A DNA stretch of 46,987 bases, taken from IMG/VR virus record IMGVR_UViG_2526164667_000034. One strand, written 5' to 3'. Shown here piece by piece: positions 1-46,987 of this stretch (its first letter is position 1; every line of letters begins with the position of its first letter). Source of the DNA: a virus. Taxonomy: Duplodnaviria; Heunggongvirae; Uroviricota; Caudoviricetes. Both the position numbers and the translations under genes were made by a program. The notes below the pieces were generated by a model that was not told the DNA's origin, searched no databases, and saw nothing but the letters and a program-made list of their open reading frames with translations.

Positions 1-1158
1 ATGCTCACCGTTAAGCAGATTGAAGCAGCAAAGCCGAAAGAAAAACCATACCGCCTTCTCGATGGTAATGGCCTGTACCTTTATGTTCCTGTATCCGGGA
101 AAAAGGTATGGCAGCTTCGCTACAAGATTGACGGTAAGGAGAAAATCCTGACCGTCGGAAAATATCCGCTAATGACTTTGCAGGAGGCAAGGGATAAGGC
201 ATGGACTGCGAGGAAAGACATCTCGGTTGGCATCGATCCGGTAAAGGCGAAAAAGGCTTCGTCTAACAACAATTCCTTTAGTGCGATTTACAAGGAATGG
301 TACGAGCACAAGAAGCAAGTATGGTCAGTAGGGTATGCGACTGAACTTGCAAAAATGTTTGATGACGACATTTTGCCTATCATCGGCGGCCTTGAAATTC
401 AGGATATTGAGCCGATGCAACTGCTGGAAGTAATCCGCAGATTTGAAGATCGCGGTGCAATGGAGCGAGCAAATAAAGCCCGCAGAAGATGCGGCGAGGT
501 TTTCCGTTACGCTATTGTCACCGGCAGGGCTAAATATAACCCGGCACCTGACCTTGCTGACACCATGAGGGGATACCGCAAGAAGAACTTCCCGTTTCTT
601 CCTGCAGACCAGATCCCGGCATTCAATAAAGCACTGGCAACATTTTCAGGAAGTATCGTATCGCTCATTGCCACCAAGGTTTTACGCTACACAGCCCTAA
701 GAACAAAAGAGCTTCGTTCCATGCAATGGAAGAACGTCGATTTTGAAAACAGGATTATCACCATTGACGCCAATGTGATGAAGGGACGCAAAATTCATGT
801 TGTCCCGATGTCGGACCAGGTGGTTGAACTTCTCACTACGTTAAGCTCCATCACCAAACCAGTATCAGAATTTGTTTTTGCCGGGCGCAACGATAAGAAG
901 AAGCCAATCTGCGAGAACGCGGTGCTACTTGTGATCAAACAAATCGGCTATGAGGGTCTGGAAAGCGGTCACGGATTCAGGCATGAATTCAGCACGATTA
1001 TGAACGAGCACGAATGGCCTGCTGACGCTATTGAAGTGCAACTGGCACATGCCAACGGCGGATCTGTGCGCGGTATTTACAACCATGCTCAGTATCTCGA
1101 TAAGCGCAGAGAAATGATGCAATGGTGGGCGGACTGGCTTGATGAAAAGGTGGAGTGA
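1..1158 (+). CDS. int: Tyrosine integrase, P4 family (IntS-like, argW-integrating type)
   Basis: 385-aa ORF from the track. N-terminal arm-binding region plus C-terminal catalytic domain (HGFRHEF, RGIYNHAQY). Recalled as close to E. coli CPS-53 IntS; not verified by search. Lies at the prophage end opposite attR. Confidence 0.9.
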   Translation: MLTVKQIEAAKPKEKPYRLLDGNGLYLYVPVSGKKVWQLRYKIDGKEKILTVGKYPLMTLQEARDKAWTARKDISVGIDPVKAKKASSNNNSFSAIYKEWYEHKKQVWSVGYATELAKMFDDDILPIIGGLEIQDIEPMQLLEVIRRFEDRGAMERANKARRRCGEVFRYAIVTGRAKYNPAPDLADTMRGYRKKNFPFLPADQIPAFNKALATFSGSIVSLIATKVLRYTALRTKELRSMQWKNVDFENRIITIDANVMKGRKIHVVPMSDQVVELLTTLSSITKPVSEFVFAGRNDKKKPICENAVLLVIKQIGYEGLESGHGFRHEFSTIMNEHEWPADAIEVQLAHANGGSVRGIYNHAQYLDKRREMMQWWADWLDEKVE

Positions 1159-1402
1159 ACCACCTTAACCACTATCGAAGTGCACAAAGCCTTGCAATCC
1201 AGTGCAAAGCTTGTGTGTCTTAGATTTCAGGGTTGCTTTCTTAGGCGTACAGGTTAATGAAATGCATCAAAATACCATTCACATCCACCTCACCCAGTAC
1301 TTCATAACCAACTGTTATCAGTGTATTTCCTCTCAGTTTGGTAAAGTGACAACCCTATGAGTACGAAATCGGTTAGGTGCTATCTGGCTATTGCTCTATT
1401 TA

Positions 1403-2545
1403 TCAAGGTGCTTCTCTAACGGATTCAGTTTTAATTGAAGATACATCTGATTTTTTTTGCATTCTACGAGCGATGGCATGCCCTATGGATACTGATGGTT
1501 TTTCAATAAAGTTATAAGATATGATTGATATAATAAAAGTAGCGCAAATCATAGCTAGAAAAACACCAAATCCTTTACTATCCAATACCCCGTACGGTTT
1601 GAGATATAAAACAGCAAGACTGTATACAACCATATGATTAATGTAAAGTGAATAGGATATTTCACCAACATACGTTAGAATTTTATTTCTATATACATCC
1701 CTACACTTAGAAATAAGGACTATTGGGGCTATAATCATAAATGAATAAGCCCCCCATGCTACAATTCCAGGTCCATTCCTTAACCCTAGGCATAAAAAAA
1801 GCAAGGCAATCGCTAATGTAATATTAAGAAATTGAACAACAGGCATTTTATTTATAAGTCTAGAAGGTAGCCTAATGTAGGCCTCTGCAATAATCATCCC
1901 CAAAATAAAGTCATATATTATTGGATTTGATACAAATACCAGATTACGAATAATTCCATCACCAGATGGCGGTTGCGCGATAGGATTTAGAAAAACATCT
2001 CCGTGAAAGTACAGTTGACCAAGAACGCAAATAATGATGAGAAGAAATGATGCGATCGCAGTTCTATATTTATGGCTGATGCATAATGAAAAAAAGAAAA
2101 CCACATAGAACCAAATTTCATACGTTAGTGTCCATGCAGGTATTATTATACTATAACCTGACCATGGCCCTATAAAATTATAGTCAATTGGTATGAGCAA
2201 GTAGCTCTTTATTATTTGTGATGATGTATATATTGCCTCATAGTTGAGGTATATAGCCAGAGTAAGGATTATAAAGTAAACAGGGTACAACCTAAAAAAA
2301 CGCTTAGCAGCAAACACCATTGGCCGGTTTTTTGCCTTATTCATTGAAGAATAAGTAATGATAAATCCACTTATAACAAAGAATATATCAACACCAACCT
2401 CACCTATACCAAAAAGAATGTCGCCCAAGTCCTTTTGGGCATACACTCCATTTAAATATACTCTAAAGTGAAACGCAATGACTAGAAGTACCGCGATCCC
2501 TCTAAGGACTTGAATAGAGTCTAACTTATTTGTTTTTCTTTCCAT
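1403..2545 (-). CDS. Acyltransferase family 3 membrane protein, putative O-antigen O-acetyltransferase (lysogenic conversion)
   Basis: 380-aa ORF, multi-TM, with N-terminal motif LRGIAVLLVIAFHF typical of OafA/Oac acyltransferases. Very AT-rich (roughly 32% GC). Sits between int and tailspike, where P22-like and Shigella phages carry serotype-converting genes. Confidence 0.75.
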   Translation of the reverse strand: MERKTNKLDSIQVLRGIAVLLVIAFHFRVYLNGVYAQKDLGDILFGIGEVGVDIFFVISGFIITYSSMNKAKNRPMVFAAKRFFRLYPVYFIILTLAIYLNYEAIYTSSQIIKSYLLIPIDYNFIGPWSGYSIIIPAWTLTYEIWFYVVFFFSLCISHKYRTAIASFLLIIICVLGQLYFHGDVFLNPIAQPPSGDGIIRNLVFVSNPIIYDFILGMIIAEAYIRLPSRLINKMPVVQFLNITLAIALLFLCLGLRNGPGIVAWGAYSFMIIAPIVLISKCRDVYRNKILTYVGEISYSLYINHMVVYSLAVLYLKPYGVLDSKGFGVFLAMICATFIISIISYNFIEKPSVSIGHAIARRMQKKSDVSSIKTESVREAP

Positions 2546-2615
2546 ATCAAAATGTGTTTTACTGATTTTTTTTAAACATACCAGATCAAAGTAATCATTT
2601 CAATACATAGGTCTT

Positions 2616-4489
2616 TTAAAAGTTTCCCTCTGATAAGAAAGAATAGGTTCCTGGCCCACCTGGAATATTGCATGTCCATGCCTTTGGTTGTCCTGAAGCA
2701 GGTGCGCTATTGATAACACGCTCACCTATATCCCAGAAACCGGATGTAGGTACTGACGAAAGATAAAATGTTGTTTTTTCAACTTGCAACGCGTTTGATG
2801 GCATTCCATATGCACATAGAGAAGGTGAGTTTATGAGTACATTTCCTGAACCATAATTTCTTATACCAACATTTATAGCTGTATCAGTTTCGTATATATA
2901 CACACCACAACTAACATAGCTCCATTTCCCATTACCAGCTAAAGGTGCTGTAGAGTCTGTTTGTCCTGCACCATTAATTATAAACATAAGTTTTGACGCT
3001 GATCCCTGGTCATTGACCCACGCACCAAACCATACAAATTTCCCTTTTAGTTCTGGTGATTTGTTGAGGTCTATCGTTCGTCCCCAAACTCTATCTCCTG
3101 TCGTAACTAAGAATGAATAATTACCAGCATAGATGTTTTGAGTTTTTATCAATGTTCCTGTAGTTCCAGATGCCGCAGTCCAGAGCAACATATTTCGATC
3201 AAGATAGTTAGCAGTTAACTCTCTGTTCGCAATATCTATTAAATGCGCAGTGTCAGGGTTTTGTGTCGCCGGGTCATAACTACCAACGTATCCGATGGAG
3301 TTCACTGTGTTGTTGGCAAGATATAGCCTGTCAGTAACTTTGGACGAAAGATTATTGTGGTACATTGCTAATAAATTATTCACTTTCGATGCGTCTAATA
3401 ACTGATTATTTTCAATCGTCAGGTTTTTCGCATAGTTCGTGAAAATAAATCCGTCTTGGTTAGGTAGCGCGCTGGCGTAGCCAATCGCGGTCTGCTGATT
3501 CCCGCGAATAGATACGGTATCATTAATTTTTGAAAGGTCAGGAATTAATGTAAAATTGTTCGCGATAAGGTGGATATCCGCACGTACTGTAATAGACTCA
3601 GGTACTCTATACTGGTAACCAATCTCACCGTTGCGTTCCCAATAGTTATCATCAAGGTTAAGGCCTTTAACCCCGTAAGCCAAAAGTCCGTAGAACTTAT
3701 TTTGCTCTATATTGTTGCCATTAACTCTGACGCTCATACCGCCCTCAGCGTAAGCTGGCGTAAGTAAAACTCCACCGGCTCCGTTACCATAGATACGGCT
3801 GTTGATTATATTAATATTATTGCAGTAACCACCAACATTAATACCGTTACCGGCGTTTTGAAACAACCGGCACCCAATGATGTCAATGGAGTAACCGTTA
3901 ACTAATATTGCGTTGTTATTAGTATTAACCACGTCAATATTTTCTATTTTAATGTGGTTGGCTTCAGTAAGACTGATGCCGTTAGCTGCGTAGCCATTTC
4001 CGTCAAGACCAAAGTCCCTGAACTCGCAGAACGTAATTACCCCATCTTGTTGCGTGATTATCGGTGCCGCTGTACCCGTAGAGAAAATTCTGGACTGATA
4101 TGCGCCAGCACCTCGTATCATGGTGACAGTATTCTTAATCGTAATACCAGGGTCAACAATGAACGCCCCCTCTGGTATAACAATCTCAGTTGGCAACGTA
4201 GCATCATCAATAGCCTTCTGAAATGCAGCTTTGTTCTGAGCACCGGTGTTTCCCTCAGCAAACCCGTAGTCTGTAAGCGTCCTCAGGTCGATAGTTAGCT
4301 TTTTTGAGAGAATGGTCGATGTGCTATCGACAAACTGTGGGTTATGCATGACTAGAGAGTCGCCAAGTGAGTGATCTTCGCTCAGGAGATTGCCCTTAAA
4401 CTGATCTGGATCATACTTTAGCACATTCGGAAAATAGAACTGCTGCGCACCGTATGCATCATAAACAGCCATAGAATGGCCTTGCACAG
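2616..4489 (-). pseudogene. Tailspike, C-terminal receptor-binding part (gene interrupted by IS2)
   Basis: Track ORF 2616..4517; its first 9-10 codons (MSGDSGGQS) are translated IS2 terminal sequence. The genuine part starts at [11 protein letters not shown], which continues the P22 gp9 head-binding domain. The long Asn/Gly-rich body fits a beta-helix tailspike and is not P22-like. Confidence 0.85.
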
Positions 4490-4580
4490 TAGACTGGCCC
4501 CCTGAATCTCCAGACAACCAGTATCACTTATTTAAGTGATAGTCTTAATACTAGTTTTTAGACTAGTCATTGGAGAGCAG

Positions 4581-4946
4581 ATGATTGATGTCTTAGGACC
4601 GGAGAAACGCAGACGGCGTACCACACAGGAAAAGATCGCAATTGTTCAGCAGAGCTTTGAACCAGGGATGACGGTCTCCCTCGTTGCCCGGCAACATGGT
4701 GTAGCAGCCAGCCAGTTATTTCTCTGGCGTAAGCAATACCAGGAAGGAAGTCTTACTGCTGTCGCCGCCGGAGAACAGGTTGTTCCTGCCTCTGAACTTG
4801 CTGCCGCCATGAAGCAGATTAAAGAACTCCAGCGCCTGCTCGGCAAGAAAACGATGGAAAATGAACTCCTCAAAGAAGCCGTTGAATATGGACGGGCAAA
4901 AAAGTGGATAGCGCACGCGCCCTTATTGCCCGGGGATGGGGAGTAA
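4581..4946 (+). CDS. insC: IS2 transposase OrfA (InsC)
   Basis: Track ORF 4536..4946; true start taken at [18 protein letters not shown]... (121 aa), recognised as IS2 InsC. Confidence 0.85.
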
Positions 4947-5809
4947 GCTTAGTCAGCCGTTGTCTCCGGGTGTCGCGTGCGCAGTTGCACGTCATTCTCA
5001 GACGAACCGATGACTGGATGGATGGCCGCCGCAGTCGTCACACTGATGATACGGATGTGCTTCTCCGTATACACCATGTTATCGGAGAGCTGCCCACGTA
5101 TGGTTATCGTCGGGTATGGGCGCTGCTTCGCAGACAGGCAGAACTTGATGGTATGCCTGCGATCAATGCCAAACGTGTTTACCGGATCATGCGCCAGAAT
5201 GCGCTGTTGCTTGAGCGAAAACCTGCTGTACCGCCATCGAAACGGGCACATACAGGCAGAGTGGCTGTGAAAGAAAGTAATCAGCGATGGTGCTCTGACG
5301 GGTTCGAGTTCCGCTGTGATAACGGAGAAAAACTGCGAGTCACGTTCGCGCTGGACTGCTGTGACCGTGAGGCACTGCACTGGGCGGTCACTACGGGCGG
5401 CTTCAACAGTGAAACAGTACAGGACGTCATGCTGGGAGCGGTGGAACGCCGCTTCGGCAACGAGCTTCCGGCGTCTCCAGTAGAGTGGCTGACGGATAAT
5501 GGTTCATGCTACCGGGCTAATGAAACACGGCAGTTTGCCCGGATGTTGGGGCTTGAACCGAAGAGCACGGCGGTGCGGAGTCCGGAGAGTAACGGCATAG
5601 CAGAGAGCTTCGTGAAAACGATAAAGCGTGACTACATCAGTGTCATGCCCAAACCAGACGGGTTAACGGCAGCAAAGAACCTTGCAGAGGCGTTCGAGCA
5701 TTATAACGAATGGCATCCGCATAGTGCACTGGGTTATCGCTCGCCACGGGAATATCTACGGCAGCAAGCCAGTAATGGGTTAAGTGATAACAGGTGTCTG
5801 GAAATATAG
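4904..5809 (+). CDS. insD: IS2 transposase OrfB (InsD), DDE catalytic domain
   Basis: 301-aa ORF overlapping orfA in the -1 frame (frameshift fusion architecture of the IS3 family); recognised as IS2 InsD. Confidence 0.85.
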
Positions 5810-5820
5810 GGGCAAATCCA

Positions 5821-6078
5821 CACAGTTACGAACTTGGCAATCTGTCCGTTATATACAGGGTAACCAGCAGCGTTAATGATGATTGGTTGCGAAACAGGAA
5901 CGTGAGAACCATCTTCGTTCTCTACATAAACCTGAATCTGGTTTTCAGGATTTACCGGGTCAGTGTCAATTTTACCGATATAAATTTTGCCATTGGCTAC
6001 AGCTTTAAAAGAACGCGCCATAGTGAAGAGTTGCGAAGGCATCGATACGATCACATTGGCATTTATTGAATCTGTCAT
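5821..6078 (-). pseudogene. Tailspike, N-terminal head-binding domain fragment (P22 gp9-like)
   Basis: [62 protein letters not shown]...KFVTV matches the P22 tailspike N-terminus as recalled. Fragment lengths minus the duplication give an in-frame 708-codon ancestral gene. Confidence 0.85.
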
Positions 6079-6200: not shown

Positions 6201-7136
6201 TTAAAGTTTTATTGAGTGGCACGCTCTATCACGTATCGCTGCGAATGAAGCTATCTCTTTAAGTGCCCAGCTTTGCTCAGCCATTAAATGGCGAAGTGCT
6301 TTTAGTTCAGCTCTTACTGCTGAAACGTCATACCCCGCTTTTGTCAGAATATTGATTAGTTTATACGCCGGACTGCATTCAACGAGTGCGCTGCGGTCAA
6401 GAGCAACAGTATCACCGCATTGCTGCCTGATAATGGCGTAAGGTGCATTTTCAGCAAACCATGAAATCGGGAAGTTAATATCCAGTTTTGGCGCTGGTAA
6501 CTCTTCTTGTTTGCCAATGAACTCACCTTCAAGTGGAACTCGAGCTGCAAGTGACAGTGCTTCGGTGAACTGCTCCTCACTGATTTCTTTGTACGAACAT
6601 CCAAAATGGGATTTCAGTGAGGACCACATGGTGATCATCGCCTTAGCCTGTTTTTCTTTTGGCAGAGACTGACCACGACTCATGACGAGTTGTTTAATGG
6701 CTTCCTGCTGTTCAGTGGTGATTTTACCCGGCAACGCCTTTTTAGCTTTGCGTGGGTTAAATACATGACCTTTAGTCCAGTAGTCATGCAGCACGCTAAA
6801 GCATTCTTCCTGGTACTGAATCAGTTTATCACGGATGTCAGCACGAACTTTCTCAGGGTTGATGCTGAACAGCCATCCATTTAACTTCTTCAGCGGGATG
6901 CATAAAAGCTTACGTAACTTGCCATCAGCAGCAACCATAGAGATATCTCTACAGTTGAATTTGTCCTTCATTTTACGCAACTTAACAGATTGACCAGTCC
7001 AGTCGATACCAATGTTTTCCACAATTTGACGCATCGCTACATAAGTCACTCCGGCAGCCACAGCGGTTAAAATCTGCTGACCATTGAAAGGCACGTAAGA
7101 GGTGTTCACTGCTTCTAAAATTGCTATACTATTCAT
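6201..7136 (-). CDS. ant: Antirepressor Ant (P22 immI-type)
   Basis: Start trimmed to [21 protein letters not shown]... with GGAG RBS; track ORF extends to 7202. Recognised as P22-type antirepressor; adjacent to arc and mnt. Confidence 0.85.
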
Positions 7137-7204
7137 GTTGGTTTTTCTCCACGAATTTACCGACAACCGAAGCCCTGACTGTTCCAGCAGTTGGGGCTTC
7201 AACT

Positions 7205-25027: not shown

Positions 25028-27459
<2,432 letters not shown>

Positions 27460-45010: not shown

Positions 45011-45211
45011 ATGCAACACGAACTACAACCTGATTCACTGGTTGATTTGAAATTCATCATGGCTGATACTGGCTTTGGTAAAACCTTCATCTACGACCGG
45101 ATTAAGTCCGGCGACCTGCCTAAAGCCAAAGTTATCCACGGTCGAGCAAGATGGTTATATCGTGACCATTGTGAATTCAAAAATAAGCTCTTAAGCCGCG
45201 CTAATGGGTAA
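45011..45211 (+). CDS. xis: Excisionase / AlpA-family DNA-binding protein
   Basis: 66-aa ORF; ...LKFIMADTGFGKTFIYDRIKSGDLPKAKVIHGRARW... is a typical AlpA/Xis winged-helix motif. Last phage gene before attR. Confidence 0.75.
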   Translation: MQHELQPDSLVDLKFIMADTGFGKTFIYDRIKSGDLPKAKVIHGRARWLYRDHCEFKNKLLSRANG

Positions 45212-45739: not shown

Positions 45740-46987
45740 CTATATTGCTGAAGGTACAGGCGTTTCCATAACTATTTGCTCGCGTTTTTTACTCAGGAAG
45801 AAAATGCCAAATAGCAACATCAGGCAGACAATACCCGAAATTGCGAAGAAAACTGTCTGGTAGCCTGCGTGGTCAAAGAGTATCCCAGTCGGCGTTGAAA
45901 GCAGCACAATCCCAAGCGAACTGGCAATTTGAAAACCAATCAGAAAGATCGTCGACGACAGGCGCTTATCAAAATTTGCCACGCTGTATTTGAAGACGGA
46001 TATGACACAAAGTGGAACCTCAATAGCATGTAACAGCTTCACTAATGAAATAATCCAGGGGTTAACGAACAGCGCGCAGGAAAGGATACGCAACGCCATA
46101 ATCACAACACCGATAAGTAATGCATTTTTTGGCCCTACCCGATTCACAAAGAAAGGAATAATCGCCATGCATAGCGCTTCGAGTACCACCTGGAATGAGT
46201 TGAGATAACCATACAGGCGCGTTCCTACATCGTGTGATTCGAATAAACCTGCATAAAAGACAGGAAAAAGTTGTTGATCAAAAATGTTATAGAAAGACCA
46301 CGTCCCCACAATAAATATGACGAAAACCCAGAAGTTTCGATCCTTGAAAACTGCGATAAAATCCTCTTTTTTTACCCCTCCCGCATCCGCCGCTACGCAC
46401 TGGTGATCCTTATCTTTAAAACACATGTTGATCATCATAAATACAGCGCCAAATAGCGAGACCAACCAGAAGTTGATATGGGGACTGATACTAAAAAATA
46501 TGCCGGCAAAGAACGCGCCAATAGCATAGCCAAAAGATCCCCAGGCGCGCGCTGTTCCATATTCGAAATGAAAATTTCGCGCCATTTTTTCGGTGAAGCT
46601 GTCAAGCAAACCGCATCCCGCCAGATACCCCAGGCCAAAAAAGAGCGCCCCCAGAATTAGACCTACAGAAAAATTGCTTTGCAGTAACGGTTCATAAACG
46701 TAAATCATAAACGGTCCGGTCAAGACCAGGATGAAACTCATACACCAGATGAGCGGTTTCTTCAGACCGAGTTTATCCTGAACGATGCCGTAGAACATCA
46801 TAAATAGAATGCTGGTAAACTGGTTGACCGAATAAAGTGTACCTAATTCCGTCCCTGTCAACCCTAGATGTCCTTTCAGCCAAATAGCGTATAACGACCA
46901 CCACAGCGACCAGGAAATAAAAAAGAGAAATGAGTAACTGGATGCAAAACGATAGTACGCATTTCTGAATGGAATATTCAGTGCCAT
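45740..46987 (-). CDS. cscB: LacY-family oligosaccharide:H+ symporter, sucrose permease CscB-like (host gene)
   Basis: 415-aa 12-TM ORF starting at the window edge. LacY-family motifs (GLKKPLIW..., FEYGTARAWGSFGYA). Recalled as CscB of the csc regulon, which maps next to argW; not verified. Confidence 0.75.
   Translation of the reverse strand: MALNIPFRNAYYRFASSYSFLFFISWSLWWSLYAIWLKGHLGLTGTELGTLYSVNQFTSILFMMFYGIVQDKLGLKKPLIWCMSFILVLTGPFMIYVYEPLLQSNFSVGLILGALFFGLGYLAGCGLLDSFTEKMARNFHFEYGTARAWGSFGYAIGAFFAGIFFSISPHINFWLVSLFGAVFMMINMCFKDKDHQCVAADAGGVKKEDFIAVFKDRNFWVFVIFIVGTWSFYNIFDQQLFPVFYAGLFESHDVGTRLYGYLNSFQVVLEALCMAIIPFFVNRVGPKNALLIGVVIMALRILSCALFVNPWIISLVKLLHAIEVPLCVISVFKYSVANFDKRLSSTIFLIGFQIASSLGIVLLSTPTGILFDHAGYQTVFFAISGIVCLMLLFGIFFLSKKREQIVMETPVPSAI

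Follow-up and report, generated by a model that had tools for sequence, protein, structure and literature searches.

A prophage AT3 acyltransferase linked to a tailspike receptor-binding domain: a candidate O-antigen O-acetylase of Escherichia coli O26

The DNA analyzed here, referred to as the window (46,987 nucleotides; IMG/VR record IMGVR_UViG_2526164667_000034, Caudoviricetes), holds a P22-like prophage of the argW tRNA locus with an AT-rich gene for a 380-aa membrane protein of the acyltransferase-3 (AT3) family between its integrase and tailspike genes. We propose, with moderate confidence and on the strength of combined computational evidence, that this protein O-acetylates the O26 O-antigen as a lysogenic-conversion gene of the prophage and would thereby hinder the neighboring tailspike. 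A broader proposition, that the native O-antigen of O26:H11 Shiga toxin-producing and enteropathogenic E. coli (STEC and EPEC) carries a phage-encoded O-acyl group, probably O-acetyl, and that the gene and its cognate receptor-binding domain (RBD) constitute a portable cassette found on at least three types of tailspike anchor, is offered only tentatively. The gene is as follows.

1403..2545, minus strand: AT3-only membrane O-acyltransferase gene (380 aa); open reading frame (ORF) with ATG start, PF01757, PHROG 3333

Judged from its sequence, the product is a stand-alone AT3 membrane acyltransferase. It matched PF01757 (Acyl_transf_3; E 9e-29, 100.9 bits against a gathering cut-off of 31) over residues 9-344 of 380, covering profile positions 2-325 of 326 and hence the full length of the family model, and it matched PHROG 3333, "O-acetyltransferase," from end to end (E 3e-103). 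The first-pass annotation of this DNA, made from the letters and ORF translations, had described an acyltransferase-3 family membrane protein of 380 aa between integrase and tailspike, and the ORF, the Pfam match, and the gene order bear it out. Pfam found no second domain in the protein and no SGNH domain, and the C-terminal 30 residues are hydrophilic and basic; with neither a fused periplasmic SGNH domain nor an 11th helix, the protein is of the AT3-only type. A PDB sequence search returned nothing at E-values up to 1, and PADLOC gave no match for the acyltransferase.

Conservation of motifs was scored in alignments with 21 and 35 relatives, the larger comprising 36 sequences. In the latter, R15-X10-H26 lies in transmembrane helix (TMH) 1 with H26 invariant and R15 conserved in at least 90% of sequences, while V52-D-I-F-F-V-I-S-G-F61 in TMH2 and R82-F-F-R85 are invariant or nearly so (R85 in at least 90%). 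W138-T-L-T-Y-E143, S297-Y-S-L-Y-I-N-H304, and E348 are likewise invariant or nearly so among relatives. According to the sources cited, mutation of the R-X10-H, FFxISG, or RXXR motif abolishes the activity of OafA, Oac, OafB, or Lag1 (PMC7448272, PMC9558356, PMC9833829). An AlphaFold model built from the 36 sequences (pLDDT 82, pTM 0.84) has ten long helices (residues 6-26, 39-66, 75-100, 137-156, 161-181, 210-231, 234-253, 261-279, 288-318, and 326-350) and a predicted TMH3-4 loop of 36 aa. Since lysine and arginine account for 16 of 57 predicted cytoplasmic loop residues versus 6 of 90 periplasmic ones, both termini and RXXR are predicted to be cytoplasmic and H26 to lie at the periplasmic end of TMH1, the same placement of termini, RXXR, and catalytic histidine as in Oac (PMC9833829). 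The best Foldseek match in the PDB was HGSNAT, the human lysosomal acetyl-CoA transmembrane acetyltransferase (probability 0.99, but with E ~0.02 and TM 0.37-0.42, a weak match), which is silent on substrate and agrees with the TmAT superfamily proposed in PMC12423673.

The distribution of the gene follows serogroup O26. A full-length copy at least 99.8% identical was present in 105 of 5426 complete E. coli genomes, the other matches in this set being four partial ones at 81%, and O26 wzy was present in 109, which leaves at least four O26 genomes lacking the gene. This places the prophage acyltransferase in about 96% of the 109 complete O26 genomes; among the matches listed, at least 31 strain names were common to both genes, where independence predicts ~2. 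The first-pass annotation had called the gene likely serotype-converting, a wording that is doubtful given 105 genomes versus 109 with O26 wzy: on these numbers the gene would belong to normal O26 rather than convert its host to another serotype. The O26 rfb cluster of strain 2013C-3277 consists of rfbBDAC, wzx, wzy, GT2, fnlA, wbjC, wecB, GT4, and wbuC, and there is no acetyltransferase among these genes.

To place the acyltransferase in context, we compared 13 other phage or prophage loci whose acyltransferases are 45-87% identical to it, drawn from IMG/VR loci and exact-protein look-ups; a pattern scan of genome contigs based on the family alignment returned mostly 24-36% identical relatives from unrelated phyla and was not used for context. 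In 12 of the 13 loci (Enterobacter hormaechei, two Morganella prophages, Limnobaculum, a metagenome contig, and seven IMG/VR contigs), a co-directional tailspike gene of 650-760 codons ends 27-331 bp upstream, these tailspikes being called from a Pfam match (Tail_spike_N, Head_binding, or Beta_helix) or from similarity to proteins so called. The Cronobacter turicensis acyltransferase (50% identical) adjoins gtrA-gtrB-gtrC. None of the relatives' loci examined lay next to wec, wca, opg, peptidoglycan, or enterobacterial common antigen (ECA) genes. As for the concern, raised in the first-pass annotation, that the best homologs might be acyltransferases not acting on lipopolysaccharide, the closest relatives were thus found beside tailspike genes or gtrABC.

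The neighboring tailspikes fall into three N-terminal anchor classes: P22 Head_binding, Tail_spike_N, and a third whose sole match, to T7 tail-fiber-N, is below threshold. Across 14 loci, similarity between acyltransferases tracked similarity between RBDs (Mantel rho 0.63, permutation p 0.0006), and this held across anchors in the following pairs, in which L numbers are our locus labels and O26 denotes the window.

L009 vs L010 (Morganella morganii): acyltransferase 100%, RBD 99.8%; anchors Tail_spike_N vs Head_binding
L103 vs L104 (IMG/VR): acyltransferase 100%, RBD 98%; anchors Tail_spike_N vs the third (weak T7-fiber-like) class
L100 vs L010: acyltransferase 81%, RBD 86%; different anchors
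O26 vs L182: acyltransferase 87%, RBD 64%; L182 on a Tail_spike_N anchor
O26 vs L012: acyltransferase 56%, RBD 56%; L012 on a Tail_spike_N anchor

The L009/L010 and L103/L104 sequences indicate recent transfer of the cassette between phage types. Since RBD and acyltransferase similarity are kept together across anchors, the inherited unit would comprise the RBD, the spacer, and the acyltransferase (~1229-4400), an interval that coincides with a low-GC tract and with the region lacking a DNA match in sequenced phages. The acyltransferase gene itself has a GC content of 34.5% (28% at third codon positions), slightly above the ~32% given in the first-pass annotation, and is the lowest-GC 1143-bp stretch of the window. 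Windows of this length average 46.8% GC (standard deviation 4.2) and only 0.4% of them are equally GC-poor, which upholds the earlier description of the gene as compositionally foreign to the phage backbone. The trough does not end with the gene but reaches the 3' portion of the tailspike gene, with 36-39% GC over ~2400-3600; tailspike positions 2616-3600 lie within this tract, which fits joint acquisition of RBD and acyltransferase. Tail_spike_N is the anchor found in the O26 cassette's nearest relatives, and we take it to be associated with phages of the phiV10/TL-2011b type. The tailspike RBD and acyltransferase probably arrived as a single low-GC cassette from an epsilon15/phiV10-like phage, and an origin in a phage with a Tail_spike_N-type anchor is likely.

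Two relatives add detail. In L102 (UViG_646311918_000001), the tailspike (2448-4655) combines a Tail_spike_N anchor with a GDSL/SGNH esterase domain, and a 51% identical acyltransferase lies 331 bp from its end; this putative pairing of a deacylating tailspike with an acyltransferase hints that the family of AT3 proteins at issue deals with acylation of the receptor glycan. The other, L004 (5019-9140; Escherichia sp. GCA_004211955.1), lies near guaA and looks like a decayed cassette, with an 81% identical acyltransferase and the spacer kept, the tailspike reduced to a 41-aa C-terminal remnant, and a second AT3 gene in between; a DUF5384 gene downstream is also found near the end of TL-2011b.

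The position of the gene is that of known conversion genes in P22-like phages. The features between the integrase and tailspike genes are listed below.

1..1158, plus strand: tyrosine integrase IntS (argW-specific), attL end of the prophage; 99% identical to Sf6 Int
1141..1166, minus strand: weak terminator-like hairpin, AAGGTGG-TTCACT-CCACCTT followed by TTCATC, from an RNA fold of 1130-1410; overlaps the int stop
2546..2615, minus strand: AT-rich spacer (70 bp, 24% GC) from tailspike stop to acyltransferase start, read from the sequence
2575..2603, minus strand: candidate promoter TTGAAA-17 nt-TATGTT with extended -10 TG, 29 nt before the ATG, from a consensus scan

The window integrase shares 379 of 384 residues with Sf6 Int. 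In related RefSeq genomes the order is yfdC, tRNA-Arg (argW), intS, acyltransferase, tailspike, ant, arc/mnt, and ejection proteins, with the tRNA-Arg gene 160 bp upstream of int and the remainder of the P22-like prophage ending at torI/xis. Given the integrase identity and this gene order, the slot is homologous to that of Sf6 oac and Sf101 oacB; the earlier statement that Sf6 carries oac at the equivalent position, between tailspike and int, holds. The acyltransferase gene thus lies between the tailspike gene and int/attL and differs in composition from its surroundings, as a conversion gene of a P22-like phage would. P22 itself carries gtrABC in the same slot adjoining int. The acyltransferase gene runs in the same direction as the tailspike gene and is convergent with int, unlike Sf6 oac, Sf101 oacB, and the Salmonella SI8 acyltransferase, which are all convergent with the tailspike gene.

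The spacer is kept in the 87% identical cassette of L182 (TTGAAA ... TGGTATG) and, from 13 nt inside the 3' end of the tailspike gene, in L004 (77% nucleotide identity). Its site at 2575..2603 is a candidate promoter for the prophage state, and seven of the other 13 cassettes have a perfect TATAAT located 43-54 nt before the sequence coding for the conserved N-terminal motif. The candidate promoter contains a single GATC (Dam site) in its own spacer, and a run of eight A residues lies between its -10 element and the start codon (2566-2592). The hairpin at 1141..1166, which lies downstream of the acyltransferase gene, was not reported by our terminator scan. Directly 3' of int, at 1160-1228, is a 60-70-bp segment with a hairpin of ~14-bp stem that is 88-95% identical to short stretches in lambdoid and P22-like phages (JEP4, Sf101, 434, HK542, and ECP1) and may represent a shared int terminator or a module-boundary sequence. 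At the DNA level the acyltransferase gene was absent from the sequenced phage collection, where the match was confined to these 60-70 bp.

Comparison with characterized O-antigen acetylases showed considerable distance. The first-pass annotation had suggested a homology search against Oac and OafA, and this did not identify an ortholog: identity was 28% over 120 aa to Sf6 Oac (E 4e-5), 26% over 93 aa to Sf101 OacB, 25% over the full length to the TL-2011b O-acetyltransferase (E 1e-15), and ~25% to the acetylase of Pseudomonas phage D3. Orthology with Oac or OacB was rejected and the protein was not placed in the Oac/OacB/OacC/OacD group, identity being at most 28% to every characterized O-antigen acetylase compared. 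The best matches in sequenced phages were in Pseudomonas phage IME307 (36%) and the Salmonella SI8 group (32%), and in a search of 5.8 billion proteins every relative was named only generically as "acyltransferase family protein." Since identity to tested acetylases is low, homology informs on the type of reaction and not on the acceptor.

Several results weigh against O-acetylation of O26 by this protein. No relative of tested function exceeds 28% identity, and no NCBIfam model matches the acyltransferase. The candidate promoter matches only 9 of 12 consensus positions, no more frequent than in shuffled sequence, and there is no clear Shine-Dalgarno sequence before the ATG. Many pairs of acyltransferases at 51-57% identity have unrelated RBDs, and Escherichia phage N7 (L179, MH717096, Lederbergvirus) has an RBD 59% identical to that of the window and no acyltransferase; its tailspike-int slot contains an unrelated 107-aa ORF21 (6329-6652) and ~540 bp of non-coding DNA, and lacks any remnant of an acyltransferase. 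The co-inheritance of RBD and acyltransferase could come from physical linkage alone, and either clonal descent or phage host range could by itself account for the association with O26. The O26 structure of Manca et al. from 1996 is reportedly without O-acetyl groups. A 2025 account gives the O26 polysaccharide as GlcNAc, FucNAc, and Rha and mentions no O-acetyl (PMC12093740), and our literature search found no report of O26 O-acetylation.

A first alternative is that the gene, although intact, does nothing in O26 and is a hitchhiker kept by clonal descent of the argW prophage, either because the prophage does not express it or because the cassette evolved on the glycan of another host and O26 is not a substrate. 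The reported composition and the weak promoter evidence are both in its favor, as is the near-identity of the 105 copies (all at least 99.8%), which leaves no signal of within-lineage selection, and the closest cassettes outside E. coli are of different host origin, one on a metagenome contig and one in Limnobaculum. However, the ORF is full length in 105 of 105 genomes, it remains intact in a prophage copy carrying three insertion sequence (IS) elements, every catalytic motif is retained, and L182 and L004 preserve the spacer together with its -35/-10-like elements. Furthermore, a temperate phage resident in O26 and bearing an O-antigen-type tailspike would be expected to be O26-specific (the rationale of PMC10408124). 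We consider a silent or irrelevant gene unlikely.

An acceptor other than the O-antigen (ECA, colanic acid, osmoregulated periplasmic glucans, or peptidoglycan) appears distinctly improbable. AT3 proteins have many acceptors (PMC9558356), and the identity of the acyltransferase to O-antigen acetylases is no higher than would be expected for any AT3 protein. In addition, the tailspike has an N-terminal match, over its first 261 residues, to PHROG 8280 ("tail spike protein with colanic acid degradation activity"); however, this match is confined to residues 2-261, mostly the anchor region, and the relatives are tied to tailspike RBDs and, in Cronobacter, to gtrABC rather than to wec, wca, opg, or peptidoglycan genes. 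E. coli also has its own enzymes for such glycans (WecH, WcaB/F, and OpgC). Lastly, transfer of a non-acetyl acyl group such as succinyl to the receptor glycan, or creation rather than destruction of a phage receptor, is very improbable: certain members of the AT3 family use succinyl or another acyl group (PMC9558356) and the esterase tailspike of L102 would act on an acylated receptor, but the characterized phage-borne O-antigen AT3 enzymes named in a section of PMC9558356 are all acetyltransferases and the O26 tailspike has a beta-helix and not an esterase domain.

Returning to the proposal that the protein O-acetylates O26, we infer, beyond what was observed of its family, motifs, predicted fold, position, distribution, and RBD linkage, that the gene is expressed in the lysogen, that the acyl group is acetyl, that the O26 O-antigen is the acceptor, and that phages are affected. 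A mechanism can be suggested by analogy with Oac, OafA, and OafB. Cytoplasmic acetyl-CoA would enter the central pore of the ten-helix protein, with the RXXR arginines at the cytoplasmic end of TMH3 holding the donor, and the acetyl group would be presented at the periplasmic face near His26 of R-X10-H. It would then be moved to a hydroxyl of a sugar (L-Rha, L-FucNAc, or D-GlcNAc) in the undecaprenyl-linked O26 O-unit or polymer before ligation of the O-antigen to lipid A-core. Both the tailspike encoded upstream and related phages would find the modified O-antigen less suitable as a substrate, with superinfection exclusion and an altered epitope as the outcome.

The tailspike gene of the window is split by an IS element, and two further elements interrupt other prophage genes, as listed here.

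2616..4489, minus strand: tailspike C-terminal fragment, codons 85-708 (end of the head-binding domain and beta-helix RBD), from Pfam
4490..5820, plus strand: IS2 (1331 bp, IS3 family) in the tailspike gene, with CACAG duplicated at 4485-4489 and 5821-5825
5821..6078, minus strand: tailspike N-terminal fragment, first 84 codons, P22-type head-binding (Head_binding, E 1.9e-47)
19587-20891: IS3-family element (~1.3 kb) in the portal gene; OrfA 19639-19965, OrfB 19962-20852
25505-27457: IS21-family element (~1.95 kb) in the gene of a Rha-family regulator; IstA 25591-26613, IstB 26610-27392

Removal of IS2 in silico restored a 708-aa ORF differing by 2 aa from the product of the intact gene of strain 2013C-3277. 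The same IS2 insertion was found in only three complete genomes (DEC9B, F2_407_2_2, and 7_33_46A), and in the acyltransferase-positive genomes inspected the tailspike is annotated as uninterrupted. The portal-gene element, which looks IS629-like, contains an Rfam ALIL frameshift pseudoknot at 19920-20036; by comparison with the window, DEC9B is without the portal-gene and Rha-gene insertions. With three IS insertions this prophage copy is defective and cannot make virions, and the acyltransferase ORF is nevertheless intact. Elsewhere in the window, an Rfam match to sar RNA (7137-7204, plus strand; 90.6 bits), the antisense RNA of the P22 immI (ant) region, marks a P22-like immI module. Sucrose-utilization genes (~45,740-46,987, with cscB in the window) lie to the right of the prophage, whose torI/xis end is near 45,211; they are followed beyond the window (L178) by cscK, cscA, cscR, and a truncated dsdX, in the variable argW-dsdCXA region. 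At the other side, yfdC directly flanks the argW tRNA gene in DEC9B, and O26 strain 2013C-3277 (L001, 1-6411) has a second integrase and phage-like genes across tRNA-Arg (argW).

O26 is a leading non-O157 STEC serogroup, and serotyping sera, serodiagnostic glycoconjugates, vaccine candidates, and O26-specific phages are all directed at its O-antigen. If the acyltransferase is active, a modification lying outside rfb and outside the reported composition is encoded in ~96% of the complete O26 genomes searched, which bears on how phages or tailspikes are selected for detection or therapeutic use. If the proposal is true, recombinant glycoconjugates made from the rfb cluster alone would miss the acyl group, which bears on epitope design. 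If the acyltransferase is inactive, its gene is an ordinary prophage moron. As a modest general point, co-inheritance of RBD and acyltransferase could be used to predict the acceptor glycan of orphan AT3 genes. Phage conversion of the O-antigen is a familiar role for such a gene. For O26, our literature search found no earlier report of it and no description of protein WP_000440209 or of the argW P22-like prophage gene. What goes beyond the first-pass annotation is the near one-to-one association with O26, although the reported composition is without O-acetyl, together with the RBD-acyltransferase cassette across anchor types, the orientation of the gene and its likely origin in a phage with a Tail_spike_N-type anchor, and the IS2-split tailspike.

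Among known systems, the gtrABC operons of P22, epsilon34, and SfV-type phages are likewise prophage functions that modify the O-antigen and are known to move between phage types; they differ in that they glucosylate via undecaprenyl-phosphate glucose and their proteins are unrelated to the acyltransferase. OafB (family II GtrC) of Salmonella prophage BTP1 and OafA are prophage- or island-borne AT3 O-antigen acetyltransferases whose essential R-X10-H and RXXR residues are common to the O26 protein. They depart from it in being AT3-SGNH fusions, which adds an 11th helix and places an SGNH domain in the periplasm. PMC9558356 states that both BTP1 OafB and Sf6 Oac modify the O-antigen and protect against the phage that carries them. 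The O-acetyltransferases of phiV10 and TL-2011b (E. coli O157 and O103) resemble the O26 protein in being AT3-only, and phiV10 Oac modifies the O157 antigen according to the same source. In TL-2011b, a 697-aa ORF, a candidate tailspike, is followed on the same strand, after a 70-bp gap, by the annotated O-acetyltransferase gene, a layout like that of the window. The O26 cassette differs from both in being joined to a P22-type head-binding anchor in a Lederbergvirus-like prophage. Sf6 Oac, finally, shares with the O26 protein the AT3-only architecture, ten TMHs, and the R-X10-H, FFxISG, and RXXR motifs, and its gene is likewise a low-GC moron in the tailspike-int slot of a Lederbergvirus, beside a 99% identical integrase. 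It differs in length (333 aa versus 380 aa), in the host O-antigen, and in orientation, oac being convergent with the tailspike gene and co-directional with int. Sf6 Oac is described in PMC9558356 as blocking the endorhamnosidase tailspike of its own phage, and a corresponding effect on the neighboring tailspike is what we propose for the O26 acyltransferase.

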